Counted from the first letter of the stretch, positions 1,313-30,398 are shown. The stretch: 54,938 nt of DNA from Pseudogymnoascus verrucosus (GCA_001662655.1 KV460222.1); one strand, 5' to 3'. A program made the numbers and translations. Notes: generated by a model not told the origin, from the sequence alone.

Positions 1313-1578
1313 AGGCGCTAAACCAATGTGAGCCAGGACGCTGAAAGCCGCGCCCCGCTTGCCGTAGCATAGTTTACTATATATGAACGTTATGTGTATT
1401 ATAGTTTGATAGTTAGTATTACATATCAAACCATGTATAGTTTAGTCTACCCTGTTCTCTGCCTAAGGGTACCCCTCTAGAGCCCTGTAATAGTATAGCA
1501 TAGCTCTCATTCTAATAAAAGTAGTGTGGATTTGTTATCAAGCAGATATCATATGTAATCTATCAAGTATAAATCCTT

Positions 1579-4444
1579 TTACTCCGTGCTGTTTATCAAC
1601 TTTATGCAATTAGTTAACAAATCCGCCCCCTCGTGTAGCAACTCCCATGTACCCATGCGGAAGATATAGCACAACACCTTTAGCATTCCTGTGCAGCCAT
1701 TAAGACGGTGGAAGGCTACATCCTCTGGGGATTTGATCCTCTCAGTCGATCTCAAAAAGTGCTGCATATCTTGGATGTGATCGTCGATGGTAGATCCCAG
1801 CGATGCTGGCACATGTGCAGGCCCATCAGCGACGTAACTGTAACACCACACTACCAAAGCAGCATAATAAAGCACCCATCGATGAATAGGCAGTGTGGTA
1901 TTACTCGTTGCATAGTTAGTAATGAAATTGTGATCACAGACTTGATTGCTTTCTGTCGACTTGCAAAAAACCGAGCATAAAAATCGAATGGCGTAAAACG
2001 TGGCTTTACGAGCTTCCATAGTCGGCGCCCACTCATTCTGGATTCGCCGTCGTGCAGTCTCAACTTCTTGCTTCCGCATAATTCGACCTAGCACCCGGTT
2101 TGCTCCAGCGGTTATCTGGCATTCCAGAATGTTTGCATGAACGCTTAACTGAGCTAAATGGAAGAGAGCAGACCTGGACCCAAGGAGGGCGTCGGCATCT
2201 TGGGTCCATTTGGACATATCGTTTGAGATAGATTGTGTTGTGTGTTCGTACGTTCCTCTCCACAGATCAAACGCTCTTGTGATGGATCTCCGCCACTTGG
2301 TACCTCTGTCTGCTCCGTTCGACTTCACGTCAAGAGAGCTAATCTGCATCTCCCGTTGATTCATGTGCCAGCTTACACTGAGCAACCCACATAGCAAAAT
2401 TGATCTTCCAAAGGCATTGGTATGGATCTCTTGGTCATTTAAAGTTCTTTGTAGACCCTCGACGAAAGGCAGAGGTTTAACGCCATTTAAACGAAGCATG
2501 GTCTCAACCTTACGTACTTCGTCAACGCTCGTTGCCGACCATAAGGCGTCATCACAAGGCAATACTAGGCGCATCTCATGCGTAACCATAATCATTGAAT
2601 GCCCGAACATTGCTGCATGAGTAGAGTCAATCATGAAAGCTGCGAAAGCAACACGTCGGGTAGCTTCCCTCTCTATCCACTTCTCCCACCACAAATCTGA
2701 AGATGACCTCGACGTCTGGTTTTCGGGATCATTTTCTTCTTGGTTTGGAGGTGTGTCCAATGGAGAACTTCCGACTAGGAAGCTTCCTCGACGCATTAAC
2801 GTTATAGCCGTGGCGTGATGGATGTGTGCTCGTTCATGGAGAGCCCTCGAAGAGCATGTTTTCTCATATGTCTCGAGGAGCAGCAGTGTTTGGAATACCC
2901 AGAGATTGTTTGTCTGTATATGCATGCTGCTGAAGACCTCCCATCTCAAATACCACGCTAGAATTGTCGAGAATTCAGTTGCCGACCTGGCCAGAGCATG
3001 ATCCTCCGATTTCATGGAGCAAGACGCGCCGATAATCATGATAGCAACCAAGAGAAGATTAGGGGTTTTGTCTGGAGAGAACGTTGGTCGGTGCACTAAT
3101 CATGTTTTGTTACTCTCGGTTTATATTCTTTGACAGTGGTATACTTACAGATTGGCAACTGAGAGTGGAAGTTCATCCAATAACTATTGATATATTCTTG
3201 CATCATGTTTTGACTCATAATATTCAAATCCTGGGAGGGATCTCTGTGGAGGGTGCTGTTCTGGAAATTTAACTCAGGAGTATGCTTATTGCCAGTAAGC
3301 CTATCTCGTATCAGATTGAAAATTTCTTTGCTCTTCTCATTTGATAGGGCCGCTGAAGGGAGGTTGGTCTCATAGGATGCCGTTCCTATAGTTAAAGGAA
3401 ACTGAGGAAGATAGCTCTCGCTAAAAATATCAGGATTAGGGCTTTCGGAAAATTGGCTTTGTGTATTTATGCAGCTGTTTATATCAGTTAACCATCCACT
3501 GCACGCACAGCTTTAGACAAGCTGCATCTATGTCACGAAGGCAAGCTCACCTTGGAAAACTCCCCGTACTTAAATTATCACCATTCCTTGAGTTGTTTGG
3601 TTGGTTTCCGTCGAAAAGAAACTGTATAAAATCATCAGGCATCGTAAATACCGAACGAGAGTATCTGTCACCACTAAACTGAGGTATCGCTGTTGGGGCT
3701 GGCAATCCGGTTCTCCAGATTCCAATATCTGGAAGCTGTTCTTGCTGGAATAGGGTGATATTTTGGTTTAATTGGTTGGAATTTATTGGCAGTGGATTAG
3801 GTACCTCATGAACGATGAAAGCGGATGTGTCTTGGGGTCCAGGTTGCTGCATTGCTGTTGATTTAACATAGTGACAGCCTGTCTGCGCCCCGTTTGGAGG
3901 ATATTGCGGTCGTATCTGGACTGGACAATCTGGATCTAAAGTAACATCGGAGGTATAGTCCATCAACTCCGGGGATCGTGTCGAGCCCTGCGCCAGATAT
4001 TAGATTACCAGGCTGGATTTAAAGCAAGTTTATAAACCTTACACTGTGGTTGGTACATGGCGTCTTCGAACTGCCGCTGTGTTGCTGCAAAAACTCACTC
4101 ATGTGACGAGTCTCGTGCCGACTGTGCAAGTCCTCTCGAACAAAACTGCGGCAGCAATTTGGAACATGGCATCTGAAAATCTCCTTTGGGTCGTGATTTA
4201 ATTGATGACGGCTTCTGCACAAAAAGTATGAGTATATCTTGCACCAGGGCAGGTCTCCAAGTAATTAGAAATCCAGTGTTTCTTACAGATGCTCTGCTCG
4301 AGAGTAAACCTTGCTACAACCCTCTACTAGGCATTGGTACACTCTAGAGGACCGCCGGCGGCGGGCCTGTCTTCTAGAGGAGGAATGTTTCGACGATGTC
4401 GAAGCGCTGTCCTCATGGTCGAAAGTTATGTGGGATTGGCTCAT
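1579..4444 (-). CDS. C2H2 zinc-finger plus fungal-specific transcription factor domain protein (5 exons); probable cluster regulator
   Basis: ATG at 4444 (MSQSHITF...). Two fingers: YQCLVEGCSKVYSRAEHL|SRHQLNH and FRCHVPNCCRSFVREDLHSRHETRH. Four GT-AG introns splice in frame to YWMNFHSQLPILHRPTF...WIEREATRRVAFAAFMIDSTHAAMFG...LPCDDALW (Fungal_trans/MHR domain). Stop at 1579. Confidence 0.9.
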
Positions 4445-4838
4445 CCTTATAATATCAAATTTCAGATGTTACTGAGTTTCAAAAAGTTTTGAGTCGAAGC
4501 TGGCTGAAGTGTGCAACTTAAGCAGCAGCCTGGAGTTTAACCCGCCAGGAGCAAGCCAGAAGGACCCATGCAAGCCCAAGCCCAAGTGCGGGGAGGTGGC
4601 GGGCGTGGTTGACCCCACGCGATTTACCCCCACGTACCCCACTCACACGAGGCCGTTATTGTCTTCCAAGACAATACATTCCAAGGTTGGAATGTACAAG
4701 TATAGTTAGTGGATACCGATAGAGCATGTGCCGAAAACGATTACTGGGCGGAATTAAACCCTCTGCATTATACGACGCTAATAATTGACGCATACCCTCG
4801 CTACTAGTATTCTTCTGGGTTGGAGATGTCTTATGTTT

Positions 4839-6752
4839 CTAAAGTCCACTGATTAACCCAGACAAGAATTCCACGAGACCTGCAGCACCAGGATCTGGAC
4901 AATTCTTCCAGTCATCACCACCAACGTACACTGAGCGACCTAAGCTGGCTTCCATCCCTCTCGTGCTCTCGCATCCCTTCCTTGCTGCTGCCACAGCCAT
5001 TACCACATCCTGCGTTTCAACCATCTTCTCCACAAACGGTTGCAAAGCATCCACTAGGGTACGATCTCCAGGCTGGGCGGGTGTATATTTACCTAGAGAT
5101 TTAAGAGCACCCTTTAGAGCATTTGACCACACCTCAGCTGTTACTCGGCTTAGTGTAGGCGTTTCTTGAAGGGAAAGACTGTATGCCAAGGAGTTTAAAA
5201 AGATGGCGTATATTGCCCCTGATGTCCCATCCATACTTGATTCCACGATGTACGCAATCTGGCTGACAAATTGGGCAACGTCGCTGGACATTCTATCTTT
5301 CTTGATATGAGCGAGAACAGCTTCTGCGCCGGCTTTCAGACAGAGTCCACAGTCGCCATCACCGACCATAGTGTCATACTTTGTGATTTCTGGTTCAGCA
5401 GAGATTAAGCCGACGAGGCCTGACTCTAACGCTTTAATTGCTCGACTAGTATTAACTGCTTGCCAGTCAGTTGAGTCATGATACGAGAAGAGTCTTGGGG
5501 GTACTAGCAGGTCAGATTGCTAGACTGAAACTCTCCTATAGCCTCTTCATTTGGCTGCTGTCTATCCTCTACCTTATCAACCCATGTACTTGGTTGAACA
5601 GCAGCTGACCAGCCAGTGGCCTGTGCCGGCGCGTCTAATAATTTCAGCATCGAAATTTGAGACTCTAGACCCGTGTCTACCAATCTAAGAAGCGAAACGC
5701 TAAATCCCAAGCCGTTAAGGCTTGACATGAAAGTCCCAGTTAAAATTCGGACTGGCTGGAGGGAATAACTATTTTTTAGTTGAGAGCAAACTTCATCAGT
5801 TATACAACCGAATTCTAGTCCACTCACGCCTCCCAGATTGTTGATGAGTAGCACGGTTGGTTCCCCTGGCTTAATGTCAACGTATGCGCGGTCTTTATCG
5901 GTTGTATCTAAAAGTTGGGCAAGCATCTCTTTGACAAGGCCAGGGAGACCAGTTTTCAAGCGCCTGCATCCTTCTTCGTTATGAATGCCCATCCCAAGCT
6001 CAATATCGTCGTCTGCGTTGAAGTCATCTCGAGCTAGTGCGCGACCGGGAAGGTGAACATGCGCAAGAGAAGCCCCGACGGTAACAAGGTTCGAGGAGAC
6101 AAGATTGGCAACATTGGAAACTGCGTCTAGAGAGGCTCTTTATGCCATCTCGTCAGCAATTACCACTTCCCAAGAACAGACAGACCACGTACCCGGTTGC
6201 GGCTAAAGCACAAGCAATCTTGTGAACTAGCACTGTGCCAGCAATACCTCGTCTCCCCAGTCTACCGCTTTTCGCTCTCCCAACACCTACGTCGTCGCCC
6301 ACAACCAACATGTCAATCTTAATACCTTGCGCTCGACATTTCTCAACCGCCATGCCGAAATGCAATGCGTCACCGGTATAATTCATGACGATAACCATGA
6401 CCCCCTGCGTATTGTCCACGCGCCGCATTAGACATTGGTAAATCTGCACTGTAGAAGGGCTTGCAAAAATTGATCCCGCCACGGCACCGCTTAACATCCC
6501 ATGGCCGACGTATGCTGCGAACGCTGGTTCGTGCCCGCTGCCCCCGCCCGATATGACTGAAACCTGGTTGCTCTTTGGCTTTTTGAGGTAGACTATTTTG
6601 TGCTTCTCATCAACTGCTACTGAAGGGTTGATCTTTGTGAGGGATCTTAGCGCAGCAACGACCAAGTGATTGGGATCATTATGAAAGTGTTTTGCTGTTG
6701 CGAGGTTAGTTGGGTTGAGTGAGGCGTGAGAAATAGTGCGCTTACAAGCCAT
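4839..6752 (-). CDS. DAK1: Dihydroxyacetone kinase / triokinase (Dak1+Dak2 domains), multi-exon
   Basis: ATG at 6752 spliced to SKHFHNDP. Motifs ISGGGSGHEP, GSIFASPS, NYTGD, DDVGVGR, GRRGIAG, GMGIHNEEG, VGDGDCG, MDGTSGA, GDRTLVDAL, LGRSVYV, PDPGA. Confidence 0.95.
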
Positions 6753-7899
6753 AATGCTGACCTCAAATTTATCTTGGGAGCTGGGAGAACGGTACGGAGT
6801 TACAATCAACAATGCGTTATTTGATATTATCCTTAGCAATTTCTAATTATCTGATTATACACATCTGTACATATATATATTTTGACAACGCGACCCGCTC
6901 GCAGAGCCCAGTACGAAATCGTCGCGGAAATAATTACTCCGAAGCGAATTGCCCCCAACTCCATCAACAGACAACTGAAAATTCACAAATAGCCACCCCA
7001 CGCCCCTCAAATTTAGGAAAAGGCACGGTCGTAATTAAAATGATAAGTGTATTGCTCAACTCAATTTTTCGCCAAGCCTATGGGGTTCAAATCCTAGTCC
7101 TCGGGGGTATTGGGGTAGAGAGGAATCCGCAGACCCAAAACGTAGTCCCGTCTTTGAAGGTACGTCTATGATTCAATATTCTCTGCACGTCTAGCCCAAG
7201 CTGATCGCGTGATCTTCGATAGATCCGCAGTTTTCTAGACCATCCTGCCGCACGCCTCGCGATACGGAGGGGCATAAAAAGTTTGGTTACGCAGCACTAA
7301 ATTTGGGGTGCAGGAAGCAGGAGGCCAGAAGTGGAAAGTAGAGTTAAAAGTGGGAGTTTGCAGTACCGGCGCTGACCCGCGGGGTTGACTGTTGGCAATA
7401 GTCGTTGAGTGGCTTCCGACTTAAATTTGGGGGCAGCGCGGGGAATGAATGGCATGGTAAGGCGACGGGACCAAACTCTGGTTGCCCGCCGTTCCCACAA
7501 CCCACCAGAACCCCAACCCCCCCTTACACAAAACCGACACGCGACACTTGATTTCATGCTAGTTCACATCTCATTAGTGTGGGGGTTCAACAGCGGCAAT
7601 TGACAAACAGACGACTTTGAAGAGTGAGATAGCTAGGCCGTCAAGAAGCTGTGGGTTGCCATCCTTCACCTGGGAGGAATGTCGGGCGGCTACTAGAGGG
7701 CATTTGAGGAGTGTCTGCCCACTTTCTTAAAGAACACTCACTACCTTCGTAACGAGCCCACAAACCGCTTGGCAGGAGCCCAATATCATTTGTCGACTTT
7801 GCATCCACCAACGAGAAACATAATTCTGTGACAGGTCTGGTGTTTTTAGCCTTCAAAACCTTCATGATATCTTCAAGTACTACTTCCCAACAAAGCACC

Positions 7900-8889
7900 A
7901 TGACACCATCAATTCTCGAGCCTTCCATGAGCCGGGCAAACGGCCACTCACAGGAATTTCCGCAAAGCGCAGGTGTGAAACTCATCCCTGGCTTCTACGT
8001 CCCAACAGTCGCATTCTTTGATCCAGATACCGAAGCTATCGACCTCGCCACAACAAGAAAACATGCAATCCGGCTCTCGCAGGAGGGGGTCACTGGTCTC
8101 GTCACACATGGCAGCAACGGCGAAGCAGTCCATCTTTCCCACAATGAGCGCATGCAAATCAACAGCGCAACCCGCGAGGCTATGAACTCTGTCGGCCGCT
8201 CAGACATGCCACTCATCGTGGGCTGCGGCGCACAATCAACACGCGAGACAATACAGCTTTGCAAAGAAGCCTCGGAATCAGGCGGCCAATTCACGCTCGT
8301 TCTTCCGCCCAGCTATTACGGTGGCCTCCTCACTAAGGAGTTGATCATTCAGCACTTTAGAGACGTCGCAGACGCATCACCCATCCCGATTATCATCTAC
8401 AACTTCCCCAGCGCCTGTAGCGGGCTCGATCTCAACTCCGAGGCAATTATTACCTTGTCGCAGCATAAGAACATCGTCGGCGTGAAGCTGACTTGTGGAA
8501 ATACGGGTAAACTTGCTCGCGTTGCTGCTGACGCATCAGCCCCCTTTTTAACTCTAGGCGGCTCGGCAGACTTTACGCTGCAGACAGCGGTTGTGGGTGG
8601 TCATGGGATCATTGGAGGATTGGCAAATATTGCCCCAAAGGCATGCCTCAAGGTCTTGCAGCTTCAAAACGCCGGGAAGGCGGCCGAAGCAGTAAGAATG
8701 CAGCATGTTGTTGCCAGAGGGGATTGGGTTGCTATCAAGGGAGGGTTTGTCGCTGTAAAGGTGGGACTGCAGGCCTATTATGGCTATGGCGGCCTCCCGA
8801 GGAGACCGTGTGCCCTTCCTGAAAAAAAGGATCTGGAGACGATGAATTCTGAGCTTGCGGAGTTAATGCAGTTAGAAAACAGTCTATGA
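7900..8889 (+). CDS. DHDPS/NAL-family aldolase of the GaaC/LGA1 (2-keto-3-deoxy-hexonate aldolase) type, intronless
   Basis: GFYVPTVAFF, GSNGE (GxxGE), LVLPPSYY, IIYNFP (catalytic Tyr), GVKLTCG (Schiff-base Lys), GGSADF, GGLANIAP. Start taken at the ATG at 7900; 7928 is an alternative. Confidence 0.88.
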   Translation: MTPSILEPSMSRANGHSQEFPQSAGVKLIPGFYVPTVAFFDPDTEAIDLATTRKHAIRLSQEGVTGLVTHGSNGEAVHLSHNERMQINSATREAMNSVGRSDMPLIVGCGAQSTRETIQLCKEASESGGQFTLVLPPSYYGGLLTKELIIQHFRDVADASPIPIIIYNFPSACSGLDLNSEAIITLSQHKNIVGVKLTCGNTGKLARVAADASAPFLTLGGSADFTLQTAVVGGHGIIGGLANIAPKACLKVLQLQNAGKAAEAVRMQHVVARGDWVAIKGGFVAVKVGLQAYYGYGGLPRRPCALPEKKDLETMNSELAELMQLENSL

Positions 8890-9494
8890 TTTGAAATATA
8901 GAACTAGCATTAGCGTTGAGTTCTATACAAGCATCTGAATTATCTGATCGATGTGGCCTCCTCCTAACAGAGCTCACGTGAGGTTTGTTGACTTACTCTT
9001 CTTGCGCGTAACGTAACTGCATTCTCTCGGTCGCAAGGGATGGCAAGTAGTGCCAGTACGGCCTAGGACAGGTGATTGTGTTGAACGTAGCGAAGTCTCC
9101 ATGAACATAGGCAATAGCTTGCAGAGCGCGAGATTACTGCAGGCGCGCCAAAATCGCGAGACCTCGGCAACAATCCGAGATCACCACAACGTAATGGTTC
9201 AAACGCCAAGAAAGCCATGACCCCCAACCGCGTGGGGCCCCCAAACAACCCCGCACTACCCATGGCAATCAGCCTCCGATGACCTGCAGGATCGTGTGGT
9301 GCCCATGCATTAGTTCGGCAGATCCAATCCGGGGCCGTGGGGGTTGCGCTTGGCGTTTTGTTCGTAGTCACGACTTATCTCGTCCTCAAAGAATAATAGT
9401 TTCTCCAACTTACGTGACCACTCCCTCCTACCGACATCTATCACTTTACACATTTACTTCTACGATATCGAAAAATCACTCGATACTGACCAGG

Positions 9495-10714
9495 ATGAGC
9501 GAAGCAGTTGATGTGCTGCTTTTTGGGCTTGGGGCGTAAGTCTGCCTGGTGGGAATTTGTCGATGTATCCTGTATCGTGGCCTATTCGGAGCTGACCAGC
9601 ACTACACAGCATTGGGTCCTTCTACGCCTACATACTCACCAAGTCGGAAAATGTTCGTCTGACGGTGGTTGCCCGATCAAATTACGACGCTGTTAAAATG
9701 AATGTGTGTATTACAACACAACAACAGGAGGCCCCGATCAGAACGAAAAAGCTAATGCATCGGCACTCAGGGTCTCACCATCAACAGTGAAGTTTACGGG
9801 TCACATACGTTTCGCCCATACAATGGTATACGCGCTACGACCCAGACAATCTTTCAAGTTATAGACTGACAAGACATATAGTAGTAAAAACTCCCGCAGA
9901 AGCAAGGGGGACATTCGATTACGTAGTGTGCTCACACAAAGCAATTGATCAAAGTTCAGTACCGGCACAGGTAGCACCAGCCGTCGACGCAAAGAAAACA
10001 ACCCTTGTCGTGATACAAAATGGAGTAGGAAATGAGGAGCCGTTTAGGCAGGCCTTTCCTGATGTCACCATCATCACATGCGTTGTGAGTTTTCTTGACC
10101 TCATTTTACCATATTTTATCACTCCTAACGCACCGTAGACATGGGTTGGTGCTCTCCAAACTTCGCCCGGGGTGATCACGCACACCAAATCTGAACATAC
10201 TCAAATTGGACTGTATCCAAACGAAAAGGTAGACAACGCACTGGAACAGGGTTGTTTGGACGCCTTCACAGGTTTCTTGAGGGCCGGCGGAACACCTTTC
10301 GACGTTGTTGAAGACATGCAAATCAAGCGGTGGGAAAAAGTAGTCTGGAATGCCGCCTGGAACTCAGTCACGACCCTAACGCTCCTTGACACGCAATCCT
10401 GGCTCAGTTCTGAAGGCGGGATGTCCTTAACCCGCCAATTAATGACAGAAGTCATTGACGTAGCGCGCAAATGCGGTATACCCTTATCCTACGATTTGAT
10501 TGACGAGCTAATCAATAAGATATTGAAGATGCCGGGGATTCATAGCAGCATGCATGCTGACCGCGTGGCCGGAAGACAGATGGAAGTTGATATCATTTTG
10601 GGCACACCGCTGAGGAAGGCTAGGGAGTTCGGCATGAAGGTGCCTATCATGGAGACTATATATACGCTTCTTACGGAGTTGAACGTGTATTTAAAACAGA
10701 CATCAAGTCCGTGA
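9495..10714 (+). CDS. Ketopantoate reductase (PanE/ApbA) family 2-keto-acid reductase, multi-exon
   Basis: Spliced N-terminus MSEAVDVLLFGLGA|IGSFY (GxGAIG), VARSNY, FDYVVCSHKA, IQNGVGNE, RWEKVVWNAAWNS, SSMHAD...MEVDIILG. Confidence 0.9.
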
Positions 10715-11294
10715 AATGAGGCATGAAGATAATGCACTTACCTGCGAAGTTAATACTGCATCTGCCGTCTTCACATGTAATTTTGGCCGATGACGAGTGT
10801 CCACCTCACCACTACCAATACTGCGAGTACACAGCTTCACAGCGGGTAACTCAATGATAGTGTAATTTAATTACGGTGGTACTCAACATTCGCACTTTCT
10901 AAAGCGTCAGTTTTGCCCGACTCCACCAAGACCCTGCCACTAAACTCCGGCCGGCCTTGCACTAAAATTGGGGTACATATGCTCCATCAACCACGCTAAC
11001 ACGGTTGAGTTGGACTCCGCAGTTTAGCCGGCTCTAGCTTACTCCTCTCCAATCACCCCTGCATTCCCCCCTCACTTCCCAAGGGGGTCACCCCAATAAT
11101 CCCAATCGTGGAACCGCCAGCCTGTTCAAGACAATGTTTCGTACCGCCATGCCACTAATACTATGAAACATTATCCTCGGACTCTTCCTCTCCGTACCGC
11201 CATGTCACCAATGCTATAAAATACAATCCTCCGATACTCCCTCTCCGCAGCAAAACGCAATATATCGCAACAGCTTTAACTATCCAGGATCAGT

Positions 11295-12188
11295 ATGGCG
11301 CCTTCAATTTTGGATATGTTCTCTCTGGCCGGTAGGACAGCCATGTTCACAGGCGGAACTCGTGGGATCGGCGCATCAATGGCCGTTGCATTGGCCGAAG
11401 CAGGCTCAGACATCATTCTCATTCAAGTAGTTCCATCCTTCCTGGCGTTCATGCCCATGAGCTGACTCGTAACAGAGAGACAACTCGAACACAGCTACCA
11501 AATCAAAAATAGAATCGCTAGGAAGAAAGGCAACCATCTACACTGCGGACCTAGCTTCATCTACAGAGGTCTCCGCATTAACAAGAAAGATTCTCAATGA
11601 TGGTCATGACATTGATATTCTGGTTACTTGCGCCGGGATTCAAAAACGCCACCCTGCCCATCTCTTCCCTCAAAATGATTGGGACGATGTTCGTGCCTCC
11701 AATCTCAGAAATCTTCATCCTTCACACTAACCCCCTTTGCGCAGGTCCTACAAGTCAACCTCTCTACAGTCTTTACCCTTTGTCGCGACGTTGGAGCGTA
11801 CATGCTCAGTCGCAAACCGAACGCGGCGGGCCACCGAGGAAGCATAATCAACGTGGCATCTCTATGCTCATTCCAAGGAGGGATAACTGTGCCAGCATAC
11901 GCAGCAGCAAAGGGTGGAGTGGCACAACTGACAAAAGCTCTCTCCAACGAATGGGCAAGCAAGGGCATCAACGTCAACGCAATCGCGCCCGGTTATATCG
12001 CAACTGATATGACTGAGGCGTTACAGAACGATAAGGAGAGGGCGGAAAGTGTTTTATCGAGGATCCCGGCAGGCAGATGGGGCAACCCTAATGACTTTAA
12101 GGGCCCTGTTATTTTCCTTGCGAGTTCTGCGTGTGCGTATGTGTCTGGGGAGATATTTCTCGTTGATGGTGGGTGGATGGGAAGGTAG
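11295..12188 (+). CDS. Short-chain dehydrogenase/reductase, KduD / gluconate 5-dehydrogenase (5-keto-gluconate reductase)-like, 3 exons
   Basis: [42 protein letters not shown] (YxxxK), [30 protein letters not shown]. This is the KduD/IdnO signature set. Confidence 0.9.
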
Positions 12189-12596
12189 ATGGGAAGGTAG
12201 ATTGAAATATTCCACAATTAAATCTTGTATATGATAATGTCAACCAAGTATTTATGAATTGCGACGGATAATAATTTTCGCTCTGAACTCTACTATCCAG
12301 TTATTGATTCTTACTCGCTCTTTTAGAATTCTGGCTATGGCGAAACAAACGATAAAGTTGACTAAACTTTGCTGTTCTACACTGTATTACAAACCCCAAC
12401 AACCCCAAAAATAGCAAGCAAATACGAGTGGCCCACCCCCACGCTTCCTTTTTGGGGAGAGACCCGAATAACGGAAGCTCTTAGCCAATATTTTGTCATA
12501 ACTATGTATTATTATACTCTTCACACTGAGTTTTTACTCAAATCACTCTAAGTTAAGGAAAATTCTTTACCATTAATAGGGCAATAGCCAAAAGCA

Positions 12597-13963
12597 ATGT
12601 CTACAGAAGCCAGAACAATCCAGGCATCCTGCCTGCACGGCGTTCGCGACCTCAGAACCGTAGGAAACCCAAACCCCGCACCAAAATGGCCCTTTGAAAA
12701 CTGAACCCCAAACCCAGGAACAACGCTTTCTCGAGCCACCGCTCCCTAGCGAGTTGCAAATCGCAATCCGCAGCACCGGAATCTGCGGATCGGATCAGCA
12801 CTATTACAACCACTTCGCAAATGGCGATATCCTGGTCCGGGAACCTCTGAGTCTTGGGCACGAGTCTTCCGGCATCGTAACCTCTATTGGCTCAGACGTG
12901 CCTTTAGGGAAATTCGCCGTCGGTGATAGAGTCGCACTTGAGGTCGGTAAGCCATGCGAGGAATGTGGGCTTTGCAAGGAAGGCAGGTACAATATCTGTC
13001 CAAAAATGAGCTTCCGGAGCAGCGCGAAGAGCTTCCCGCATTTCCAGGGGACGTTGCAAGAGGCGATCAATGCGCCGGCGAAGTGGTGCCATCGGTACGT
13101 TCCATGCCCCTCTTTTCAATTGTGTTTCTGCTCATGCGTATATAAATCATCGGTGGCTGACGGAACGATTTTAAAAGGCTCCCACCATCCGTCTCCACCG
13201 AAGAAGGTGCTCTCGTAGAGCCCCTCAGCGTTGCAATCCATGGCATCCGCCGCGCAGCTCTCACTCCAGGCGCGACTACGCTCGTAATCGGGGCCGGGGC
13301 GGTTGGATTACTCACAGCTGCCATGCTACGGGTGACAGGATCCTCGAAGATCGTGATCTGCGACATCGAAGGGCGGCGCGTCAATTTCGCCACAGCGAAC
13401 GAGTTTGCGGATCTCGGCTTCGTGGTCCCCATGAGGCGCGGATCAACTATTGAGGAAAATCTCGAGATTGCTCGGGAGACGGCGGCTTTAGCTGTCGGAG
13501 CGGTACGGGAAGGTGAGGGGTTCGCAGGCTTTGATGCTGTGTTTGAATGCACAGGTGTTGAGGCCTGCATGCAAACTGCGATTTATGTACGTCGTCTTTA
13601 TGTATTTTCAACTTATTGCATGGGTTCAACTGTACTGATTATATGCCAATACAGGCAAGTCGACCAGGCGGAAAGGTGATCATGATCGGGATGGGCACGC
13701 CTGTGCAGACTCTGCCCATGTCTGCCGCTGCATTACGGGAGGTGGATCTGATTGGTGTTTTCCGCTACGCAAGTACATACCCATACGGGATCTCTGTACT
13801 CGCGGGCGAAAATAAAGATGCGGGACGGAGCCTGCCTGATATCTCGAAGCTGATTACGCATCGATTTTTGGGACTGGATAGCATTCCGGAAGCTTTTAAA
13901 ATGGCCGGGAGGGGTGTTGATAAGAAGGGGGACTTGGTGCTGAAGGTCGTTGTTAATATTTGA
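12597..13963 (+). CDS. Zn-dependent medium-chain polyol/aldonate dehydrogenase (sorbitol DH / L-idonate 5-dehydrogenase-like), 4 exons
   Basis: GICGSD, LGHESSG, structural Zn CEECGLC...YNIC, FRSSAKSFPHFQGTLQE, EPLSVAIH, GAGAVG, FECTG, GVFRYA. Confidence 0.9.
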
Positions 13964-14326
13964 GAGGCGTAGAGACGGGCTAGGTGATGATCTTTTGGAT
14001 AGATAAAGCTATTCTATGAATTTGGTTTTTTACTTGACCCTGCACTCGAGGAAATGGTGGGTTGTTACCACTGCTCAGTTTGTGGGAAGGTGTAATTATT
14101 CAATAGCCTTTTAGCTTTGAGTTCACCTTGTTACAAGTCAATTCTACTAAAGCCAAATAGCGCACAGCACCTCCGTCAATTACGCTTAGAGAATTGCATC
14201 AATTTAAAAGTACACATAATGAACACATGCAGCAAATTTCGGAAACTATTCAGAATATACAGAGCATAGCTTTATCATTTCCTAAAAGACCTCCCCGTAA
14301 AGAGTCGCCTTGTGGATATAGACCCT

Positions 14327-15657
14327 CTACCACTCTCTTATACTACCGTCCGGACCAAAAAACTCCTTACACTGCCAGGGCTTCGTGTCTTTACTAATCT
14401 TCCTCACCATCTCTTCATCAATCTCAATACCTAAACCCACCCCTGTCGGCGCGTTGACATACCCATCCGCAATGTCAAACACGCTCTGATCCTTCAAATA
14501 CGTAAGTAAATCAATTCCGTCACCCGACTCAGTATTATAATGCATGCCCAAGCTCATCTCCAAGATCGCAAAATTCGGCGTCGCCAATGCAACCTGTAAC
14601 GAGGCCGCAAATGCAACAGGGCCAAGGGGACAATGCGGCGCGATTGCGACGTCGTATGCCTCAGCCATAATGGCGATTTTCCGCGTCTCGGAGATACCGC
14701 CAGCATGCGCAATGTCCGGCTGCAGAATATCGACCGACGTGTCTTCGAGGAAGCGCTTGATGTCCCAACGCGTGTAGAGGCGCTCGCCAAACGCGATCGG
14801 GATGCTTGTGGAGTCTGCAAGCTGCTTGATGGCTTCCGGGTGCTCACAGAGAAGTGGCTCTTCGATAAAGAGTGGACGGTGGGGTTCTAATGCTTTGGCC
14901 AGCTGTTTCGCCATGGGCTTGTGCAGGCGGCCGTGGAAGTCGAGGCCAACGTCTAGGCCTAGGGATTTTACAATGCGGAGGCGCTCGACTGTGGCGTCGA
15001 GGACGGAGGGTGAGTCGACCCAGTTTGTGTCCTCGGTTGCATTCATTTTGACGCATTTGAGGCCCTGTGCTATTCGTGCTTTGCTGTAGCACGAGTTAGC
15101 AATTGGTCGTGAGTGAGAGGAGTGCATGATCACGTACGCGGCGATTTCGACGTCGGCTGGCCTGTCACCCCCAATCCAGGCGTAGACCTGTACCTTATTT
15201 CTGACCTTCCCACCGAGCAACTCATAGACTGGGACTCCGAGAGTCCGGCCTTTGTTGGGCGAAGATCCTCAGCTTTCGTATCCTGCCAATTATTCTTCAA
15301 TGGAGGGGACTAACCTTTGAGATCCCACAAGGCAATGTCAATTCCAGAGAGTGCAGACATAAAGACCGGACCACCACGGTAGAAGCCATGTCTCCAGAAC
15401 ATTTGCCATATATGCTCAATGTTACTTCATTTTGTTAGCAAGGTATACTCAATAGGCAGCCAACATGAATAAACGACGCACTTTGCTTCCTGGCCAATAA
15501 GTCGCACAATCATCTCGTCTAGTGCACCCTCAACAGCGAGATCGTGGCCCTCGAGGGTGCCTTCACCCCAGCCGTACTGCCCAGCGTCATCACTGATCTT
15601 GACCATCAGCCAGCGAGGCTTAACGCGGAAATATTCGATGCTTGTGATTTTGGCCAT
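14327..15657 (-). CDS. dgoD: Enolase-superfamily (mandelate racemase subgroup) aldonate dehydratase, D-galactonate dehydratase-like, multi-exon
   Basis: [20 protein letters not shown]...[102 protein letters not shown]. Confidence 0.92.
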
Positions 15658-16598
15658 TATGAAATGAGGCAATTAGTCGATGAAGGCTTTTAGAAAGTCG
15701 CACGGTGGGGAAGGGGAAAGGCGTATGATTGATAGATATGGAAGAGTAGAATCGAACAATGAGAAGCATGAGTGATAGAATTCGTGGCTGTCCGCCAACT
15801 TGATGATTAACTGTTCTGCACGGACATACCCTGAAATCGGACCGTGGGGGTTTCCAATTAGTGTAGCAGCTGCTTTGAGCCTAGCGTCGTTATGGACCTG
15901 CCTCGGAACACCCCCAACGTTTTCTGGCCCATCGATTAGACCGCGTACTACCAATCGCCACATTCAGACTAGGTCCCGACTTTTCGGTCCAACGCCGAAA
16001 TGTCCGATAGATTATTACTAGTGGGTACCAACGCAAATATGTCGTTACCCCGCATATCCCACGCTACTACCCGCCCCCACGCTCCTCCGAACTCCCTCAA
16101 ACTTCTTCAAACTTCTCCAAACTCCCCAAACTCCCCCAAACTCCCCCAAACTCCCCCAAGCCCTACCTCCCCCAAGCAAGCCGTTGTCGTCAGCTGCATT
16201 GTTTTAAGCTGTTCTAGACTTCCGCCCTAATTTCGGGGGTGGGGAACTGTTGATTGGCAAATACACCCCTAAGATCCAAGCGTTGGGGGCTAGATCGCTT
16301 GGCAACGAAAGCTCTCCCCCCCCCAAAAAAACCCACCCAGTTTATTATTGTGTTCGCAGCGGATCATGGAGGTTGTCAACATCTCACCGCTACCCCCGAA
16401 TCTTTCCCCTTTTGAGTTCGATGAAGGTAATGGAAACCGCTAACCCCCGCATCCCGTGTCAAACTTAGAAGAGCTGCGAGTCTGGGGTAACACACTAGTT
16501 CCGTGCAGAGCAATATATGACCCTCTCGACATCATCTAACCTCCTCTGAGCCCATCTTCCCATCAAGACTCATCCCGCATTCCTGTAAGAACACAACA

Positions 16599-18381
16599 AT
16601 GGCGCCAATCGACGTTCTTAACGGTAACGAGGACGTGTCATCCATCGGTGACAGCAAGACGAGCTCAAACCAGATCGAAGATAAAGAGTCTGGCACCAAG
16701 GGGGCTCAGGTCAGCGAGGAACGAGTGGTTCTCACTGAGCAAGATGTGAGTCCATCTTTAAAGTGTATCTACTTAGAGACAGAAGAGATTACTAACGCTC
16801 GCCAATAGAACAAACTCATCCTTCGCAAAACAGACAAGTCAATTTTAACAATACTTGTCTGGGTGTACTTCCTCCAGGTCAGCATTCTACTCTACTCGCA
16901 AAGCCCCACGCAGCCCACTAATTTGACCTAGATCCTCGACAAATCAGTGCTTGGATATGCTTCTCTCTTTGGCCTCCGAGAAGATACTAAGCTGAAAGGC
17001 ACAGAGTACTCTATGGTCGGCTCTATAGCCCCAATCGCTCAATTATGTTGGCTCCCCTTCGCCTCTGCCGTGATAGTCAAGGTGCCTCATCGTATCTTGA
17101 TGTCTATACTCATCTTTGGTTGGGGTCTTGCGCAGACCTGCATGGCTGCATCTCACAACTACGCTGGGCTTGTCACCTCCCGCTTCTTCCTCGGTCTATT
17201 CGAAGCTGCTTGTCTGCCACTTTTTGGCGTTATAACTAGTCAGTGGTACCGTCGCGCTGAACAACCAGTTCGTATCGCAGCTTGGTATGGAACTAACGGC
17301 ATGGCAACCATTATTGGATCTGCACTTTCTTTTGGTCTGGGTCATATTCCTAGTAGCACTCTTAGGTCATGGCAGATGTAAGCTTCATTCTAGCCTCCCT
17401 TTATGTGCACTCCAGTGAAGTGGATGCTATGCGCATAGTAGCTAATTTCTCACTAGTATTTTCATTTTCGTTGGACTTGTTACTGTTATTACTGCCCCGT
17501 TCGTTTACTGGAAGCTCGACAACGACGTGGAAAGCGCACGCTTCCTTACTAAACACGAGCGCGCTCAAGCTATTGAGCGACTTCGCGCAAACAATACTGG
17601 TATTGGCTCTCGCGAATTCAAATGGAGCCAAGTCGTCGAGGTCTTCCTTGATCCAAAGACATACCTCTGGTTTGTTTTAGCTCTTCTCGTTAATGTTGGA
17701 GCAGCGGTGAGCAATGTCTTTGGTCCACTTATCCTAAACGGACTTGGATTTGACAAGTACATCACGTCGCTACTTAACATTCCTTTTGGTGCAGTGCAGC
17801 TCTTGGTTATTCTCCTAGCGAGTTACGCTGCACATAAGGCGAAGCTAAAGGGTGCTATCCTAGCTATCCTCATGCTCCCCGTCGTTGCTGGATTAGCCAT
17901 GCTATATGCCCTTCCGCGAAACAGCGCCAACATTGCCCCTAATCTAGTTGCATACTACCTTCTCGCGTTTCTCTTTGGTGGAAACCCCCTCCTTATCACT
18001 TGGCTCGTGGGTAACACTGCTGGAACAACTAAGAAGACGGTCCTAATGGTTATTTACAACATCGGTATATCTGTTGGCAACATCATTGGCCCGCTATTGT
18101 TCAAAGCATCAGATGCTCCAAGCTATCTTCCAGGACTGCGCGTTGTACTGGGCTTGTTCTGCGCAATGGTTGCTGCTATCTTAGCACAGTGGTTCTTACT
18201 CTTCACCATGAACAAAGGCCAAGAGAGGAAGCGTGTTGCGAACGGGAAGCCAGCGAAAATCACTGATCGCTCCATGATGGACCAGTATACCGCGCAGGAT
18301 GACATTGATAGCAGAAATACCGACGCCGCATTGCATGATCTAACTGATCGCAAGAATGACGAGTTTGTGTATATCTACTGA
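16599..18381 (+). CDS. MFS transporter, anion:cation symporter (Dal5/allantoate-permease-like) family, 4 exons
   Basis: ILRKTDK..ILVWVYFLQ|ILDKSVLGYASLFGL, RFFLGLFEA, QWYRRAEQPVRIAAWY, ARFLT, NTAGTTKK, GNIIGP, DAPSYLPG, C-terminal DLTDRKNDEFVYIY. Confidence 0.92.
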
Positions 18382-19200
18382 TGAAACTGTGGCTGTTAGA
18401 GTATTATGGTTTTGGTTATTCGTGTACGGAAGCAGAATTTATTCTTTATTTGTTTATTATTAAACGATAATAACTACTGGCTCAGACAGGAAACCGCATT
18501 TTTCTCGAGGAAAGGCTTCGACATTTGATCGTGACCTGTGTGCCACATAAATGTGATAGACGTTTCTCAGATATGTTAATAATATGATACAATGTTAAAC
18601 GACGACATAATGCATATGCAACAAAAGTATATAGGCTATAATTTCATAAGACGTTAGCAGTAACACATCAATACGGACTAATGCGTTGGTGGCCAAGTGC
18701 ATGGTACGACCATACTCGAGAGGATTGATTTTCGAAACTGCTCCTTCTAAATCTTTATTCCAACTGATTGTCCAACGGTTAGAGAATCTCTTGCAGGCAT
18801 TATTCAAATAAAGCTCCACTTTGCAAAGGAAGCCTCTAGTACAAGCAGTTCTTCTGTAACGCTTAGATCTTCTCTCGTTATAACGCCCTTTCTACTCTAG
18901 GTCCCTAACAACCTCTTCTCGAACCACCCTTGTGCGCTTACGGTTCCTACGACATGCTTAGGAGTATACATACCTGTGGTCACATAACTACATGAGCGCA
19001 TTATACAATATATAATATAATATTAGCGTAGTGTTTTTTGCTACAGACAGCGATTTTATGGTAGTTGGCATGTTAACGGAGGGAGCCACAGCTCTAGGAC
19101 CTGATGTACACCATTTTGCAGTCCTACGAGAATACATTAGATCTCTATAGTAACCGGAATTTCTGTTTAAAAAATCCTTACCCTAAACTTTCTCCGCCTG

Positions 19201-19880
19201 TTACATCCTAGGGAGCGCAAAATGCTCGTTCTTTGCCTTTGCTGCTATCTCCGTAATAGCAACCACATCATCATGCCCAAACGCCGCCGCCATGTGCTCT
19301 AGAGACACGCCCTTAGTCTCCGGCGCCCAAATGAAGATATAAATCCAACCACAAACGACACAGGAGCCAAAGAAAAAAAACGTGCCATACCCAATGCTAC
19401 TAATCATGTATGGCGTAGCCTTCGTAATGACCAGATTCATGACCCACTGCATCGATGCCCCCAGCGTCGCACTGACTGTGCGCACATTTAACGGCGCTGC
19501 TTCGCTTAACAGGATGTACGGGATGCCGCCAAAGGCAGAAGCATAGCCAATGGAATAGATATATATGAATGCAATAGCAGCGATAGCACCACTATTGATC
19601 TGCTGCGTGAAGCCGTCCGGATGCGTGATCTTGACATAGGCGCCGACGAAGAAGAGCGAAAAGCTCATGATCCCGCACGAGCTCAGTAGGAGGGTTTTGC
19701 GGCCGATACGGTCGACTAGGAAGAGCATTGAAATTGTGGCAGACACAGATTTCACCACGCCGTAGATTCCTGTTGCGAAAAGACCAGTGTCGGTTCCTGT
19801 TACGCCTAGTGATTTAAATATGAGCGGTGAAAAGTAGTTCATGCCGTTGATGCCGGAGAGTTGCCAGAGAATTGCTGAGA
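19201..19880 (-). pseudogene. 3' half of a sugar-porter family (quinate permease-like) MFS transporter, 5' half missing
   Basis: WQLSGINGMNYFSPLIFKSLG, VDRIGRKTLLL, SEAAPLNVR, PETKGVSLE. Preceded by an intron acceptor and then AT-rich TpA-rich relic DNA from ~19910. No N-terminal exons visible. Confidence 0.75.
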
Positions 19881-19909
19881 AATCAAGCCAACTATAAACA
19901 TTAGTAGTC

Positions 19910-20890
19910 AACCCTATATGGTAATTTAAGATGTGGACTGCCTAGGTACCACTTAGTATATAGTAACAGAGTTATTAATTCAATTGCCTTTTCCTATTCT
20001 AATGAAGCTACGTAGTATTTATAGGCTTGTAAGAGCCTACTGCAACCCCATAAACCCTCGAGTAACCCATTGGGAGGACCATAGGGAACGCTGGCTTCTA
20101 CAGTGCAGATAACTAGGTTTCTAGGGCCAAAATCAGGGGGTTTATCTAACGCCCGGCCTGTTCCTTAATACTGGCTATGCTAATTAATTATATTAAAAAG
20201 CATCTTAAGACTAGCGTAAAAAAGGAATGTCTATATCCCTTATGTTATATACTACTTATAACACTTTAGACTCCTAGGCCTATTTTTAGGATGCTTACTA
20301 TATTAAAGAACTACGTTTAAACTGTGTTACTAAGAAAAGAAGGAGAGAAGATAGTAAGGAAAGCATGCAAGACACGAAGGACAAGGCTTTAAGCGTTGTG
20401 AGCAAGAAGGTAAAGAATGAGCATAAGAAGGGAGAGGGGGAATATGCGGAATCTACGACATCATAACTAGATAATATCATAGTATCATTTTCAAATTGCA
20501 ATTGAAACTGTGGTCTAGAAGTAGGCGATGCCATTAGAAGCCTATATGTATACTAAAGGGCATAAGAAGGATAGAGATCCTACTATCTTATGTATATAGA
20601 GCTTAGAAAGCTCTAAGTGTAAATACTACATTACCTAGTATATAGTATATGTTCTAGTAGGTTCTTATCTAGCCTCTAGCCTTTATAAATTGTCTATCTT
20701 ACTATTACTAACCTCTAGAGATAGATCTCCTAGTTCCTAGCTAAATAATACTAGAAACCCCTCCAACTTAGCTAACTCCCTATTTGCCTAAGGCTTCCTT
20801 ATACTATATGCCTAAGGCTTATAATTAACCTATAATAGCCCTAAGCCTTAAGGGTGCTATATAACAACTATAACTAACCTAAGTAAGGAG
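19910..20890. mobile_element. RIP-degraded transposon relic block ending in a partial LTR copy (~20745-20890)
   Basis: TpA-rich, CpA/CpG-poor DNA. 20745-20890 aligns by eye with the 3' half of the LTR at 31617-31915 (tttgcctaaggcttcctta...agtaaggag) with C>T/G>A changes. Confidence 0.75.
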
Positions 20891-27778: not shown

Positions 27779-28409
27779 GAGTCATAATGTCAGCCTTGCA
27801 TTATTTCCACTAAGGCTCAAGTACGCCGTTAGCAATCCTCTTTCTGATATTCCATCCTATTGTAGATGGAACGAGCGGTGAGGGCAAAATAGTTTTATTT
27901 TTATATGTAACGTAACTTAGGGGGAAGCGGGGCTACTTACTAGTCTTAAGAGGGGGAGTTAGCATTGTTATTATAAAGAAAACAATAGGCTATAGGCAAA
28001 GCTTAAAATTATATTCTAGCTTATAACAAAGCTGTCTAAATTAGGTTAGTACGAAATTCCCCTTTTATATTAAAATTCTATAATAACATATACTATATAG
28101 ACTTAATTTAATACTAATATAGACCCTTATAACACTAATTACTATATATATAACAAAGATGTAACTTTATACTAATAGATTTAGACTACTTCTACTACCT
28201 AAACAACTACTAACTATTAGACTTCTAGATAAATAAAGGGCATCCTAATCTTTATACCTATACCTTATATAATAACCTAAATAGGGGTTTGTTATAGTTA
28301 CTCCTTAGTCTCTATTCTTCCTCTATACTATATAACCTATATAATAACTTATATATAGTATAAGCTTATATACTTTAAGGACAAAGTACCTTCTAAAGGT
28401 AGAGGATAG

Positions 28410-28570
28410 TATAAGGATACTTCCTTACTTAGGTTAGTTATAGTTATTATATAGCACCCTTAAGACTTAGGGTTATTATAGTTTAATTACAACTATAAGC
28501 CTTAGGTATATAGTATAAGGAAGCCTTAGGCAAATAAGGGGTTAGTTAAGTTAGGGGGGTTTTAGGTATT
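28410..28570 (-). mobile_element. RIP-mutated partial copy (inverted) of the 31617-31915 LTR
   Basis: Reverse complement reads ...tatttgcctaaggcttccttatactatatacctaaggc...ctaagtaaggaagtatccttata, homologous to the LTR 3' end ...agtaaggaggcatccttaca. Confidence 0.8.
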
Positions 28571-28579
28571 AAAGGAACG

Positions 28580-30199: not shown

Positions 30200-30398
30200 A
30201 GGGTATAAAGAGATAACCCTTTATAGCTATTTCCTTAAATACCTAAAATTGCTCTAACTTAGCTAACTCTCTATTTACCTAAGGCTTCCTTATACTATAT
30301 ACTAAAGGCTGTTAGTTACAACTAACCTATAATAGCCCTAAGTCTTAATAGTGCTACATAACAGCTATAACTAACCTAAGTAAGGAGGCATCCTTATA
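30200..30398 (+). mobile_element. RIP-mutated partial copy of the 31617-31915 LTR
   Basis: ...ctaaggcttccttatactatat...aagtaaggaggcatccttata, collinear with the pristine copy. Confidence 0.85.

Follow-up and report, generated by a model that had tools for sequence, protein, structure and literature searches.

The 54,938-nt stretch of Pseudogymnoascus verrucosus DNA analyzed here (the window) carries, at positions 1579-18381, eight genes that probably constitute a conserved, co-regulated Pezizomycotina cluster for non-phosphorylative aldonic acid catabolism, with D-galactonate as the most likely substrate. New here are the conserved cluster, a candidate for the elusive aldolase of fungal D-galactonate catabolism, a regulator with a promoter motif, and two extra reductases that are kept with the core. 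The scheme we favor begins with an anion:cation symporter (ACS)-type permease, which would import the acid, and a DgoD-type dehydratase, which would convert D-galactonate to 2-keto-3-deoxy-D-galactonate; a HOGA-like aldolase, nominated by linkage and family, would cleave that product to pyruvate and D-glyceraldehyde, and in this lineage a DAK-family kinase would phosphorylate either D-glyceraldehyde directly or dihydroxyacetone. A PanE-like protein and a KduD-like short-chain dehydrogenase/reductase (SDR) would most likely act on keto- or epimeric aldonates, yielding the 2R,3S-aldonate accepted by the dehydratase, the oxidative half of the inversion falling putatively to a medium-chain dehydrogenase (MDR) here and to a flavocytochrome b2 in variant loci, and a C2H2/Fungal_trans regulator may drive the genes through a CGTGGGG(G)T element present in their promoters. 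Because the dehydratase, aldolase and DAK map onto the three steps of the published fungal D-galactonate pathway, and the permease fits uptake, we take the cluster to house the genes of that pathway in Pseudogymnoascus and in many other Pezizomycotina.

An intact eight-gene cluster

We scanned 30 stop-to-stop open reading frame (ORF) pieces from window positions 780-23653 against Pfam and, separately, against NCBIfam, and constructed spliced models by enumerating frame-compatible GT..AG introns; NCBIfam scores were obtained per exon or ORF piece, and sums over exons are rough. Together the scans identified, in order, a C2H2/Fungal_trans regulator (877 aa), a DAK (601 aa), a DHDPS-family aldolase (329-341 aa), a PanE-like protein (322 aa), a KduD-like SDR (262 aa), an MDR (385 aa), a DgoD-type dehydratase (384 aa) and an ACS-family MFS permease (528 aa). 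Every spliced model is a complete reading frame with a single terminal stop, and the regulator and MFS genes have their stop codons at positions 1579 and 18381, respectively. The gaps between cluster genes range from 363 to 1147 bp, and the intergenic ORFs scanned with Pfam (the ORF at 6761-7171 lay outside the scan) matched no family. An earlier note on this DNA, made from the sequence alone, had described eight intact, contiguous genes in this order, a description that the domain scans and the complete spliced frames bear out. The DNA of the window is fungal and its introns are short; 355 N residues all lie past 50 kb, in runs at 50338-54256.

Dehydratase, aldolase, kinase and permease

The dehydratase gene (14327-15657, minus strand) has four exons, its three introns being RNA-confirmed, and encodes a 384-aa D-galactonate dehydratase of the DgoD type, in the enolase superfamily. 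Both MR_MLE_N and MR_MLE_C are present (2.5e-63 for MR_MLE_C), and the C-terminal 313-aa piece alone, still holding an 18-codon in-frame intron, scored 365.5 bits against the NCBIfam galactonate dehydratase equivalog NF010624 (EC 4.2.1.6), above the cut-off of 311; the second-best NCBIfam family scored 164.5 bits. Once spliced, the protein shares 47.5% identity with E. coli DgoD across 385 aa (E = 1.9e-129). The best PDB relative of the dehydratase is 3rr1, a 'putative D-galactonate dehydratase' (2.2e-82), and its identity to fungal proteins is 74-94% among the best 120 matches, reaching 94% for several Pseudogymnoascus species when the intron-containing piece was the query. The best Aspergillus niger match is An04g02760 (ASPNIDRAFT_50500), at 75%, and the species pattern of the close matches (A. 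versicolor, T. marneffei and Penicillium) resembles the DgdB row in the supplement of PMC6231085, a supplement that gives no An numbers. Membership in the DgoD equivalog and 47.5% identity to E. coli DgoD favor D-galactonate over D-gluconate as the substrate. The product would be 2-keto-3-deoxy-D-galactonate, an activity predicted from family membership.

The aldolase gene (7900-8889, plus strand) is a single exon encoding a 329-aa class I aldolase of the DHDPS/NAL family; an upstream ATG at 7864 would extend the protein to 341 aa. It matched PF00701 with 146.1 bits (1.2e-42; cut-off 22.1), and its PDB matches were headed by the fungal DHDPS-family protein 3qfe (2.3e-57), followed by human HOGA1 (5.2e-37) and YagE (1.2e-25). 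Identity to E. coli YagE is 32%, and the score against the NCBIfam model for archaeal aldolases of 2-keto-3-deoxygluconate (KDG) was 80.7, compared with a cut-off of 390. All 14 orthologs aligned share the GSNGE motif, the Schiff-base Lys in GVKLT and the Tyr in IYN, and Pseudogymnoascus sp. 24MN13 has a protein, VE04_04503, with 99% identity to the window aldolase. Linkage and family membership make this HOGA-like protein a candidate for the missing fungal 2-keto-3-deoxy-D-galactonate aldolase (EC 4.1.2.51).

The DAK gene (4839-6752, minus strand) encodes a 601-aa, two-domain, ATP-dependent dihydroxyacetone kinase/triokinase, with introns at 6192-6138 (predicted) and 5508-5456 (GC..AG). Pfam returned Dak1 (1.4e-57 and 1.6e-34) and Dak2 (2.2e-44), the GIHNE (His) and GDGDCG motifs are present, and three exons scored 245.8, 205 and 223 bits against the glycerone kinase equivalog TIGR02361, a rough sum of ~674 that exceeds the cut-off of 574.95 and places the protein in that family. 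The permease gene (16599-18381, plus strand; four exons, with three RNA-confirmed introns) encodes a 528-aa MFS protein of the ACS (DgoT/Dal5-like) family, with MFS_1 matches of 4.5e-17 and 7.8e-11 and scores of 79.9 and 65.9 bits against TIGR00893, which are under its cut-off of 395. No PfkB/DgoK or 2-keto-3-deoxy-6-phosphogluconate (KDPG)-aldolase domain occurred among the window ORF pieces scanned, a search confined to the window. The lack in the cluster of a 2-keto-3-deoxy-galactonate kinase or 2-keto-3-deoxy-6-phosphogalactonate (KDPGal) aldolase domain fits a non-phosphorylative route.

Conservation of the cluster in other fungi

Using the 14-ortholog aldolase alignment, we retrieved 30 environmental fungal loci and searched them by tblastn with the eight spliced proteins. 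At least one further cluster gene was present in 20 of the 30 aldolase-anchored loci: the SDR and the regulator in 13 each, the dehydratase in 11, the PanE-like gene in six, the MDR in five, the DAK in four (one match being weak) and an MFS of the window's type in one. The other 10 held the aldolase only; seven of these are shorter than 4.1 kb, and the three long ones (L007, L011 and L012) probably hold paralogs. When the same alignment was used to look for a prokaryotic analogue, only two loci were found (Ktedonobacteria, 43% identity), and tblastn with the eight proteins detected no other cluster gene in them; prokaryotes thus supplied no functional analogue.

Locus L004 contains all eight genes, at 55-86% identity, in the order regulator, DAK, aldolase, dehydratase, MDR, SDR, PanE-like gene, MFS. 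Locus L001 contains six cluster genes, including the MDR, and its 2.4 kb between the regulator and the aldolase (L001:7577-10040) are without a DAK homolog; absence of the DAK from this site and its presence in the window and L004 imply that it was gained or lost within the group. Loci L015, L017, L019 and L022 each combine aldolase, regulator, dehydratase, PanE-like gene and SDR, and L025 combines SDR, aldolase, regulator and dehydratase. Given that some loci are near-duplicates (L004/L005, L001/L008 and L025-L028), the set amounts to roughly ten independent arrangements.

When 69 more ORFs, drawn from 10 loci, were scanned with Pfam, they proved to include a flavocytochrome b2-type gene (Cyt-b5 plus FMN_dh; L-lactate-dehydrogenase-like by NCBIfam) in each of five variant loci, at L015:1-1158, L017:3482-5095, L019:6088-7527, L022:16229-17749 and L025:11573-12711, and in L022 it is the divergent neighbor of the PanE-like gene. 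The Pfam scan of ORF pieces from the window detected no FMN_dh gene. An MFS gene adjoins the aldolase in L015, L017 and L019, and NCBIfam places the L017 and L019 proteins in the same DgoT-type ACS family as the window permease. The window and L004/L005 combine an MDR with a DAK, and both genes were found in closer relatives only, outside the widely conserved core. As read from these arrangements, the conserved core is the predicted regulator, acid permease, aldolase, dehydratase, SDR and PanE-like protein; the putative oxidative enzyme varies by lineage, being the MDR here and the flavocytochrome in more distant variants, and the DAK is a lineage-specific addition. The earlier note had ended the pathway with the DAK, and the family assignment of this protein holds, but its gene lies outside the widely conserved core.

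Named genomes provide additional evidence for linkage. The dehydratase EON64707 adjoins the aldolase EON64708 in Coniosporium apollinis, accessions KAL2075208 and KAL2075209 are adjacent in Oculimacula yallundae, and the Taxawa locus tags H2203_001126 (SDR) and H2203_001127 (aldolase) are adjacent; we also counted the Pseudogymnoascus locus tags VE04_04503 and VE04_04507 as linkage evidence. Three public gene models (P0241, P0282 and P0307) are fusions, of SDR and dehydratase in A. affinis and of SDR and MDR in A. thermomutatus and Pseudogymnoascus VKM F-4518; these are probably annotation errors, yet they are evidence of adjacency. By a weaker proxy, equal-sized source contigs, at least a dozen further species have two or three cluster genes together. 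The supplement of PMC6231085 gives T. marneffei proteins of the DHDPS family (6594) and the DgdB ortholog (6595) consecutive identifiers, and the A. niger counterparts in the same source, NRRL3_08012 and NRRL3_06731, are far apart by gene number. Dispersal of the A. niger genes may be the reason that work centered on that species missed the link. Because the linkage recurs, rearranged, in other fungi, the clustering is beyond chance. The possibility raised at the outset, that no species would keep these genes together, is contradicted by the 20 of 30 loci with further cluster genes, by L004 with all eight, and by the adjacent genes in named genomes.

A regulator and a shared promoter motif

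The regulator gene (1579-4444, minus strand) comprises exons 4444-4287, 4214-4043, 3987-3551, 3498-3149 and 3095-1579, with predicted introns, and encodes a protein with two C2H2 fingers and a fungal-specific transcription factor domain (PF04082, 6.5e-56). The fingers, two canonical C-X4-C-X12-H-X3-H units at residues 38-60 and 68-90 of the spliced model, were recognized by pattern match, the separate exon pieces giving no match to Pfam zf-C2H2. The protein is not of the Zn2Cys6 class, having two C2H2 fingers with PF04082 instead. The finger region is 38-68% identical across related loci, including all variant clusters.

Words belonging to the motif ACCCCCACGC / GCGTGGGGGT, written here as CGTGGGG(G)T, occur in five of the six cluster promoter regions. 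Copies lie upstream of the regulator gene (4613-4619 and 4628-4634), in the divergent DAK/aldolase promoter (6996-7002), upstream of the PanE-like gene (9231-9237 and 9336-9342), upstream of the MDR gene (12437-12443) and in the divergent dehydratase/MFS promoter (15843-15849 and 16075-16081). The window has 16 CGTGGGG sites, eight of which fall inside the cluster promoters, a total of 4,039 bp (post hoc binomial, 6e-6), and a ninth of which is in an MFS intron. Five 7-mers were common to at least five of the six promoters, compared with a mean of 0.18 in Markov-shuffled controls, none of 500 of which reached five; for 8-mers, the same control gave a mean of 0.006 against two observed (1 of 500 shuffles). 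In nine related loci, where stretches matching the proteins occupy 45-68% of the cluster spans, 24 of the 26 motif sites in the spans avoid those stretches, and just two sites occur in the ~42.6 kb beyond the spans. The sites occupy corresponding promoters despite the changed gene order in relatives. CGTGGGGGT is a candidate binding sequence of the C2H2 regulator.

Transcription and splicing

We aligned to positions 1400-18600 RNA contigs from two runs of one study on a close relative (X1 and X4) and from a soil metatranscriptome (X5), along with contigs from a DNA-like run (X7). Contig depth is unsuited to ranking genes, and parts free of RNA were taken as a weak hint at most. X1 and X4 contigs cover seven genes (DAK, aldolase, PanE-like, SDR, MDR, dehydratase and MFS), parts of which also appear in X5, and the regulator has little RNA cover. 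Among the joints listed, 15 GT..AG introns are spliced in X1 and X4 (four in the PanE-like gene, two in the SDR gene and three each in the MDR, dehydratase and MFS genes), including the PanE-like intron 9826-9881, which was fixed by RNA; X5 confirms seven of the 15, and X7 confirms none, reading through the introns. One RNA contig spans the aldolase gene (7605-8942). The dehydratase/MFS promoter bin (15750-16323) has zero RNA cover, yet it is covered by the DNA-like X7. In the DAK gene, the RNA joint is at 5453/5509 with two letters between its sides; contigs of the close relative are spliced there and differ by two letters, and DAK intron 2, as read from this joint, is 5456-5508 with a GC..AG donor in the window. 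The first DAK intron and all four regulator introns lie outside the joints listed and are predictions.

Three oxidoreductases and the choice of substrate

Homology places the three remaining enzymes in families rather than assigning them substrates. The PanE/ApbA-family gene (9495-10714, plus strand; 322 aa, five exons, four RNA-confirmed introns) is of the 2-keto-acid reductase type, matching ApbA (2.4e-11) and ApbA_C (2.1e-32), with catalytic and cofactor motifs in place; two of its five exons scored 121.1 and 35.3 bits against the TIGR00745 subfamily, a rough sum that exceeds the cut-off of 141.35 and supports membership. It reached no equivalog model and shares 24% identity with E. coli PanE, so it is a family member for which pantoate formation is not implied. 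PanE-family enzymes convert 2-keto acids to D-2-hydroxy acids.

The SDR gene (11295-12188, plus strand; 262 aa, three exons, two RNA-confirmed introns) matched adh_short_C2 (3.4e-35) and carries the TGGTRGIG and YAAAK motifs. It is closer to E. coli KduD (46.1% identity, 229 bits) than to IdnO (38.3%, 179 bits), and its top PDB matches, 4hp8 (8.8e-46) and 4z9y, are KduD-type. Against the kduD equivalog TIGR01832 (cut-off 338.85), exons 3 and 2 scored 203.1 and 43.3 bits, exon 1 being outside the scan, and the SDR also matches NCBIfam gluconate 5-dehydrogenase models. No match identifiable as GluF (EHA27001.1) appeared among the matches listed. KduD-type enzymes act on C5 of (deoxy)hexonates. 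A 78%-identical SDR in A. niger comes from a single strain record (CBS147352_11147, KAI3036902.1; P0277, a cluster of one member, on an 11 kb contig), which could reflect either an accessory gene or contamination at the contig level.

The MDR gene (12597-13963, plus strand; 385 aa, four exons, three RNA-confirmed introns) encodes a Zn-dependent medium-chain dehydrogenase of the polyol-dehydrogenase type, with an ADH_N match of 2.9e-21, GICGSD, GHE and structural-Zn Cys motifs, and an Asp typical of NAD-dependent oxidation. Its PDB matches include, at 5e-26 to 6e-21, the ketose reductase 1e3j (5.2e-26) and xylitol, L-arabinitol 4- and sorbitol dehydrogenases, ahead of E. coli IdnD (6dkh, 5.1e-15); identity is 29.9% to IdnD and 28.5% to LgoD. 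Scores of 83.1 and 35.8 bits on two exons (~119 in rough sum) leave it outside the L-idonate 5-dehydrogenase equivalog NF007375, for which the cut-off is 469. The combination of one oxidative and two reductive enzymes suggests inversion at C2 and/or C5, or direct use of 2-keto or 5-keto aldonates.

Several observations weigh against a D-galactonate pathway as we read it. The published pathway needs no PanE-like protein, SDR or MDR, yet the SDR and PanE-like protein belong to the core, their genes being conserved in the cluster to the same degree as the dehydratase gene, so the true substrate may differ and be converted to the DgoD substrate. The DAK lies near the aldolase in just four of 30 loci (one weak) and is absent from L001, making the triokinase step lineage-specific. 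For the aldolase, human HOGA1 (5.2e-37) is a better match than the KDG aldolases of YagE type (1.2e-25); the permease is 23-24% identical to LgoT and DgoT; and the correspondence of An04g02760 to DgdA or DgdB (NRRL3_10522 and NRRL3_08012) is putative. Recognition of the motif was post hoc, first in the window and afterwards in related loci. The CreA consensus is SYGGRG, and since the motif core, GTGGGG, fits it, the motif may be a sign of catabolite repression instead of control by the cluster regulator; it could serve catabolite repression, the two-finger regulator, or both. Lastly, the functions of all the cluster genes are read from sequence and linkage.

One alternative, which we consider unlikely, retains the D-galactonate core and places the oxidoreductases downstream, with D-glyceraldehyde reduced to glycerol by the SDR or PanE-like protein, glycerol oxidized to dihydroxyacetone by the MDR, and dihydroxyacetone converted to its phosphate by the DAK. 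The polyol 2-dehydrogenase type of the MDR, the passage of the DAK over the glycerone kinase cut-off, and the co-occurrence of the two genes in the window and L004/L005 all suit this role. Fungal models send glycerol through glycerol dehydrogenase and DAK (PMC9781776), and glyceraldehyde toxicity is suspected in PMC8113861. Two reductases are conserved where one would suffice, however, and L001 keeps the MDR without a DAK. Moreover, PanE-family enzymes act on 2-keto acids and KduD-type SDRs on hexonate-type substrates, and known fungal glyceraldehyde reductases are aldo-keto reductases.

On a second proposal we place similarly little weight: the C2H2 regulator, ACS permease, PanE-type protein, KduD-type SDR, dehydratase and aldolase, with either MDR plus DAK or flavocytochrome b2, would form an undescribed funnel that inverts C2 and/or C5 of several aldonates and keto-aldonates into one 2R,3S-aldonate, which is then cleaved unphosphorylated. 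Such a funnel might take in L-gulonate, 2-keto-L-gulonate or L-idonate, or else 2- and 5-ketogluconate or ketogalactonate, with release by soil bacteria or breakdown of D-glucuronate or ascorbate as candidate sources. Flavocytochrome b2 oxidizes L-2-hydroxy acids, and if such a funnel exists, the version found in the variant clusters could be the missing L-gulonate 2-dehydrogenase of D-glucuronate catabolism in fungi.

The earlier note had placed keto-aldonate reduction and C5 inversion to a D-hexonate before the dehydratase; spelled out in full, its route would run from imported 2-keto-L-gulonate (or L-gulonate or L-idonate, derived from D-glucuronate or ascorbate) through L-idonate, 5-keto-D-gluconate and D-gluconate to KDG, followed by cleavage to pyruvate and D-glyceraldehyde and phosphorylation by DAK. 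Its claim of a sugar-acid catabolic cluster with a dehydratase-aldolase-triokinase core stands, but homology does not support the upstream steps, and we regard the full route as improbable. One NAD-type oxidative MDR with two reductase-type enzymes does suit the inversion chemistry, D-gluconate and D-galactonate are both 2R,3S, the best NCBIfam match of MDR exon 2 is L-idonate 5-dehydrogenase (1.5e-23), and the SDR matches gluconate 5-dehydrogenase models; a flavocytochrome b2 beside the PanE-like gene in a variant locus would also fit the conversion of L-gulonate to 2-keto-L-gulonate, for which the gene 'has not yet been identified' as of April 2026 (PMC13158570). However, the dehydratase is a DgoD equivalog; the proposed idonate/gluconate 5-dehydrogenase pair is at odds with an MDR at ~119 of the 469 bits required for IdnD and nearer to polyol dehydrogenases, and with an SDR nearer to KduD than to IdnO; and the MDR is missing from more distant clusters. 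GluC and GluD, the 2-keto-L-gulonate reductases of A. niger, are described in PMC5306355 and PMC4870679 as D-isomer 2-hydroxyacid dehydrogenases rather than PanE-family proteins, and their domain is absent from the cluster scan. A. niger has the D-glucuronate pathway, yet among the best 120 matches it has no aldolase ortholog, and a close SDR is found in one strain; its D-gluconate is phosphorylated (PMC5814732). In PMC4870679, the D-glucuronate RNA-seq table includes no DgoD-type or DHDPS-type gene besides gaaB and gaaC, and none of the A. niger sugar-acid dehydratases is reported to be active on L-gulonate. What these comparisons suggest as the useful kernel of the earlier idea is that C5 and C2 redox steps feeding the dehydratase are chemically coherent.

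Less probable still is a Dahms-type pentonate pathway, in which L-arabinonate or D-xylonate (2R,3S) would yield pyruvate and glycolaldehyde, the variant flavocytochrome oxidizing glycolate. The aldolase is HOGA-like and HOGA yields pyruvate and glyoxylate, five variant loci have FMN_dh family genes, and L-arabinonate is the pentose analogue of D-galactonate; but a C2 aldehyde would leave the cluster DAK without a role, the dehydratase passes the galactonate dehydratase equivalog, and no aldehyde dehydrogenase occurred among the cluster ORFs scanned. That the genes are mere neighbors with no common pathway, a view open to anyone mindful that all of their functions are deduced from sequence, is highly improbable given linkage that survives rearrangement in many lineages, a common promoter motif and joint presence in RNA contigs.

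Other features of the window

Two Sugar_tr (sugar-porter) genes lie at 19204-19941 (minus strand), ~0.8 kb past the cluster MFS, and at 42163-43905 (plus strand). Positions 28001-34000 are strongly AT-rich (GC 0.28-0.38) and without long Pfam-bearing ORFs, and may be repeat-degraded DNA. A protein kinase gene (47184-48281, minus strand) and a gene for the mitochondrial ribosomal protein mS41 (48819-49511, plus strand) are unrelated to the cluster.

Relation to known pathways

At the level of abstracts and selected passages, we found no published description of this gene set as a fungal cluster or pathway. The earlier note's view that the set had not been described as one pathway is thus supported by the absence of such a description from this part of the literature on fungal D-galactonate dehydratase and on the gene combination, with the qualification that the three core steps are already in print as a pathway. 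For that pathway, PMC6231085 states that 'no aldolase has been associated' (2018), PMC9781776 that the genes of the penultimate step 'are still elusive' (2022), and a 2024 review (PMC11219438) presents the fungal D-galactonate route as known only through A. terreus biochemistry. By supplying a widely conserved candidate aldolase gene, a candidate permease, a regulator and a motif, the cluster makes the question directly testable. The two extra reductases in the core imply either that steps are missing from the textbook three-step scheme or that more substrates are used than it allows for, and both possibilities bear on the engineering of fungi that consume or make sugar acids. A fungal host given an A. 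niger D-galactonate dehydratase and a KDG aldolase, with no further step, lost growth on galactose, and glyceraldehyde toxicity was suspected (PMC8113861); such toxicity would favor retaining an enzyme for triose removal in the linkage group.

The published fungal D-galactonate pathway resembles the cluster in having a D-galactonate dehydratase, an aldolase step to pyruvate and D-glyceraldehyde, and a DAK-type triokinase (PMC6231085, PMC9781776 and PMC11219438), and the cluster dehydratase is 75% identical to an A. niger protein of that family. As described in those sources, however, its genes are scattered and no gene is assigned to the aldolase step, whereas here they lie side by side with a permease, a regulator and three extra oxidoreductases; the cluster, in turn, has no galactose dehydrogenase or lactonase. 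The T. reesei L-fucose system (PMC12370193), which we considered as a match and rejected, uses LGD1 and LGA1, a different gene set.

The MDR and SDR pair could invert hexonate C5, as in the A. niger D-glucuronate pathway (GluC/D = GurA/B, GluE = IddA, GluF = KgrA) and E. coli idnDOTR, and the A. niger gluD and gluE genes are also clustered (PMC5306355). The D-glucuronate pathway, however, uses 2-keto reductases of another family and ends in gluconate phosphorylation rather than a dehydratase and an aldolase, and the cluster SDR is nearer to KduD. With the bacterial KduI/KduD step of hexuronate and unsaturated-uronate catabolism the cluster shares an SDR 46.1% identical to E. coli KduD with KduD-type top PDB matches, but it lacks the KduI isomerase, KdgK kinase and Eda aldolase.

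Closer in logic is the fungal D-galacturonate pathway (GaaA-D), in which an enolase-superfamily dehydratase (GaaB) is likewise followed by a DHDPS-family aldolase (GaaC) with no phosphorylation. By description it is set apart, operating in the L-series (L-galactonate, with L-glyceraldehyde reduced to glycerol) under the regulators GaaR and GaaX and with another type of transporter. The E. coli dgoRKADT system (the phosphorylative De Ley-Doudoroff route) has the DgoD ortholog (47.5% identity), an ACS-family transporter and a dedicated regulator in common with the cluster. In place of a DgoK-type kinase and DgoA, a KDPGal aldolase of different fold, the cluster has a class I aldolase of the DHDPS family together with a triose kinase. 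Thus, in the fungal cluster, phosphorylation would follow cleavage.

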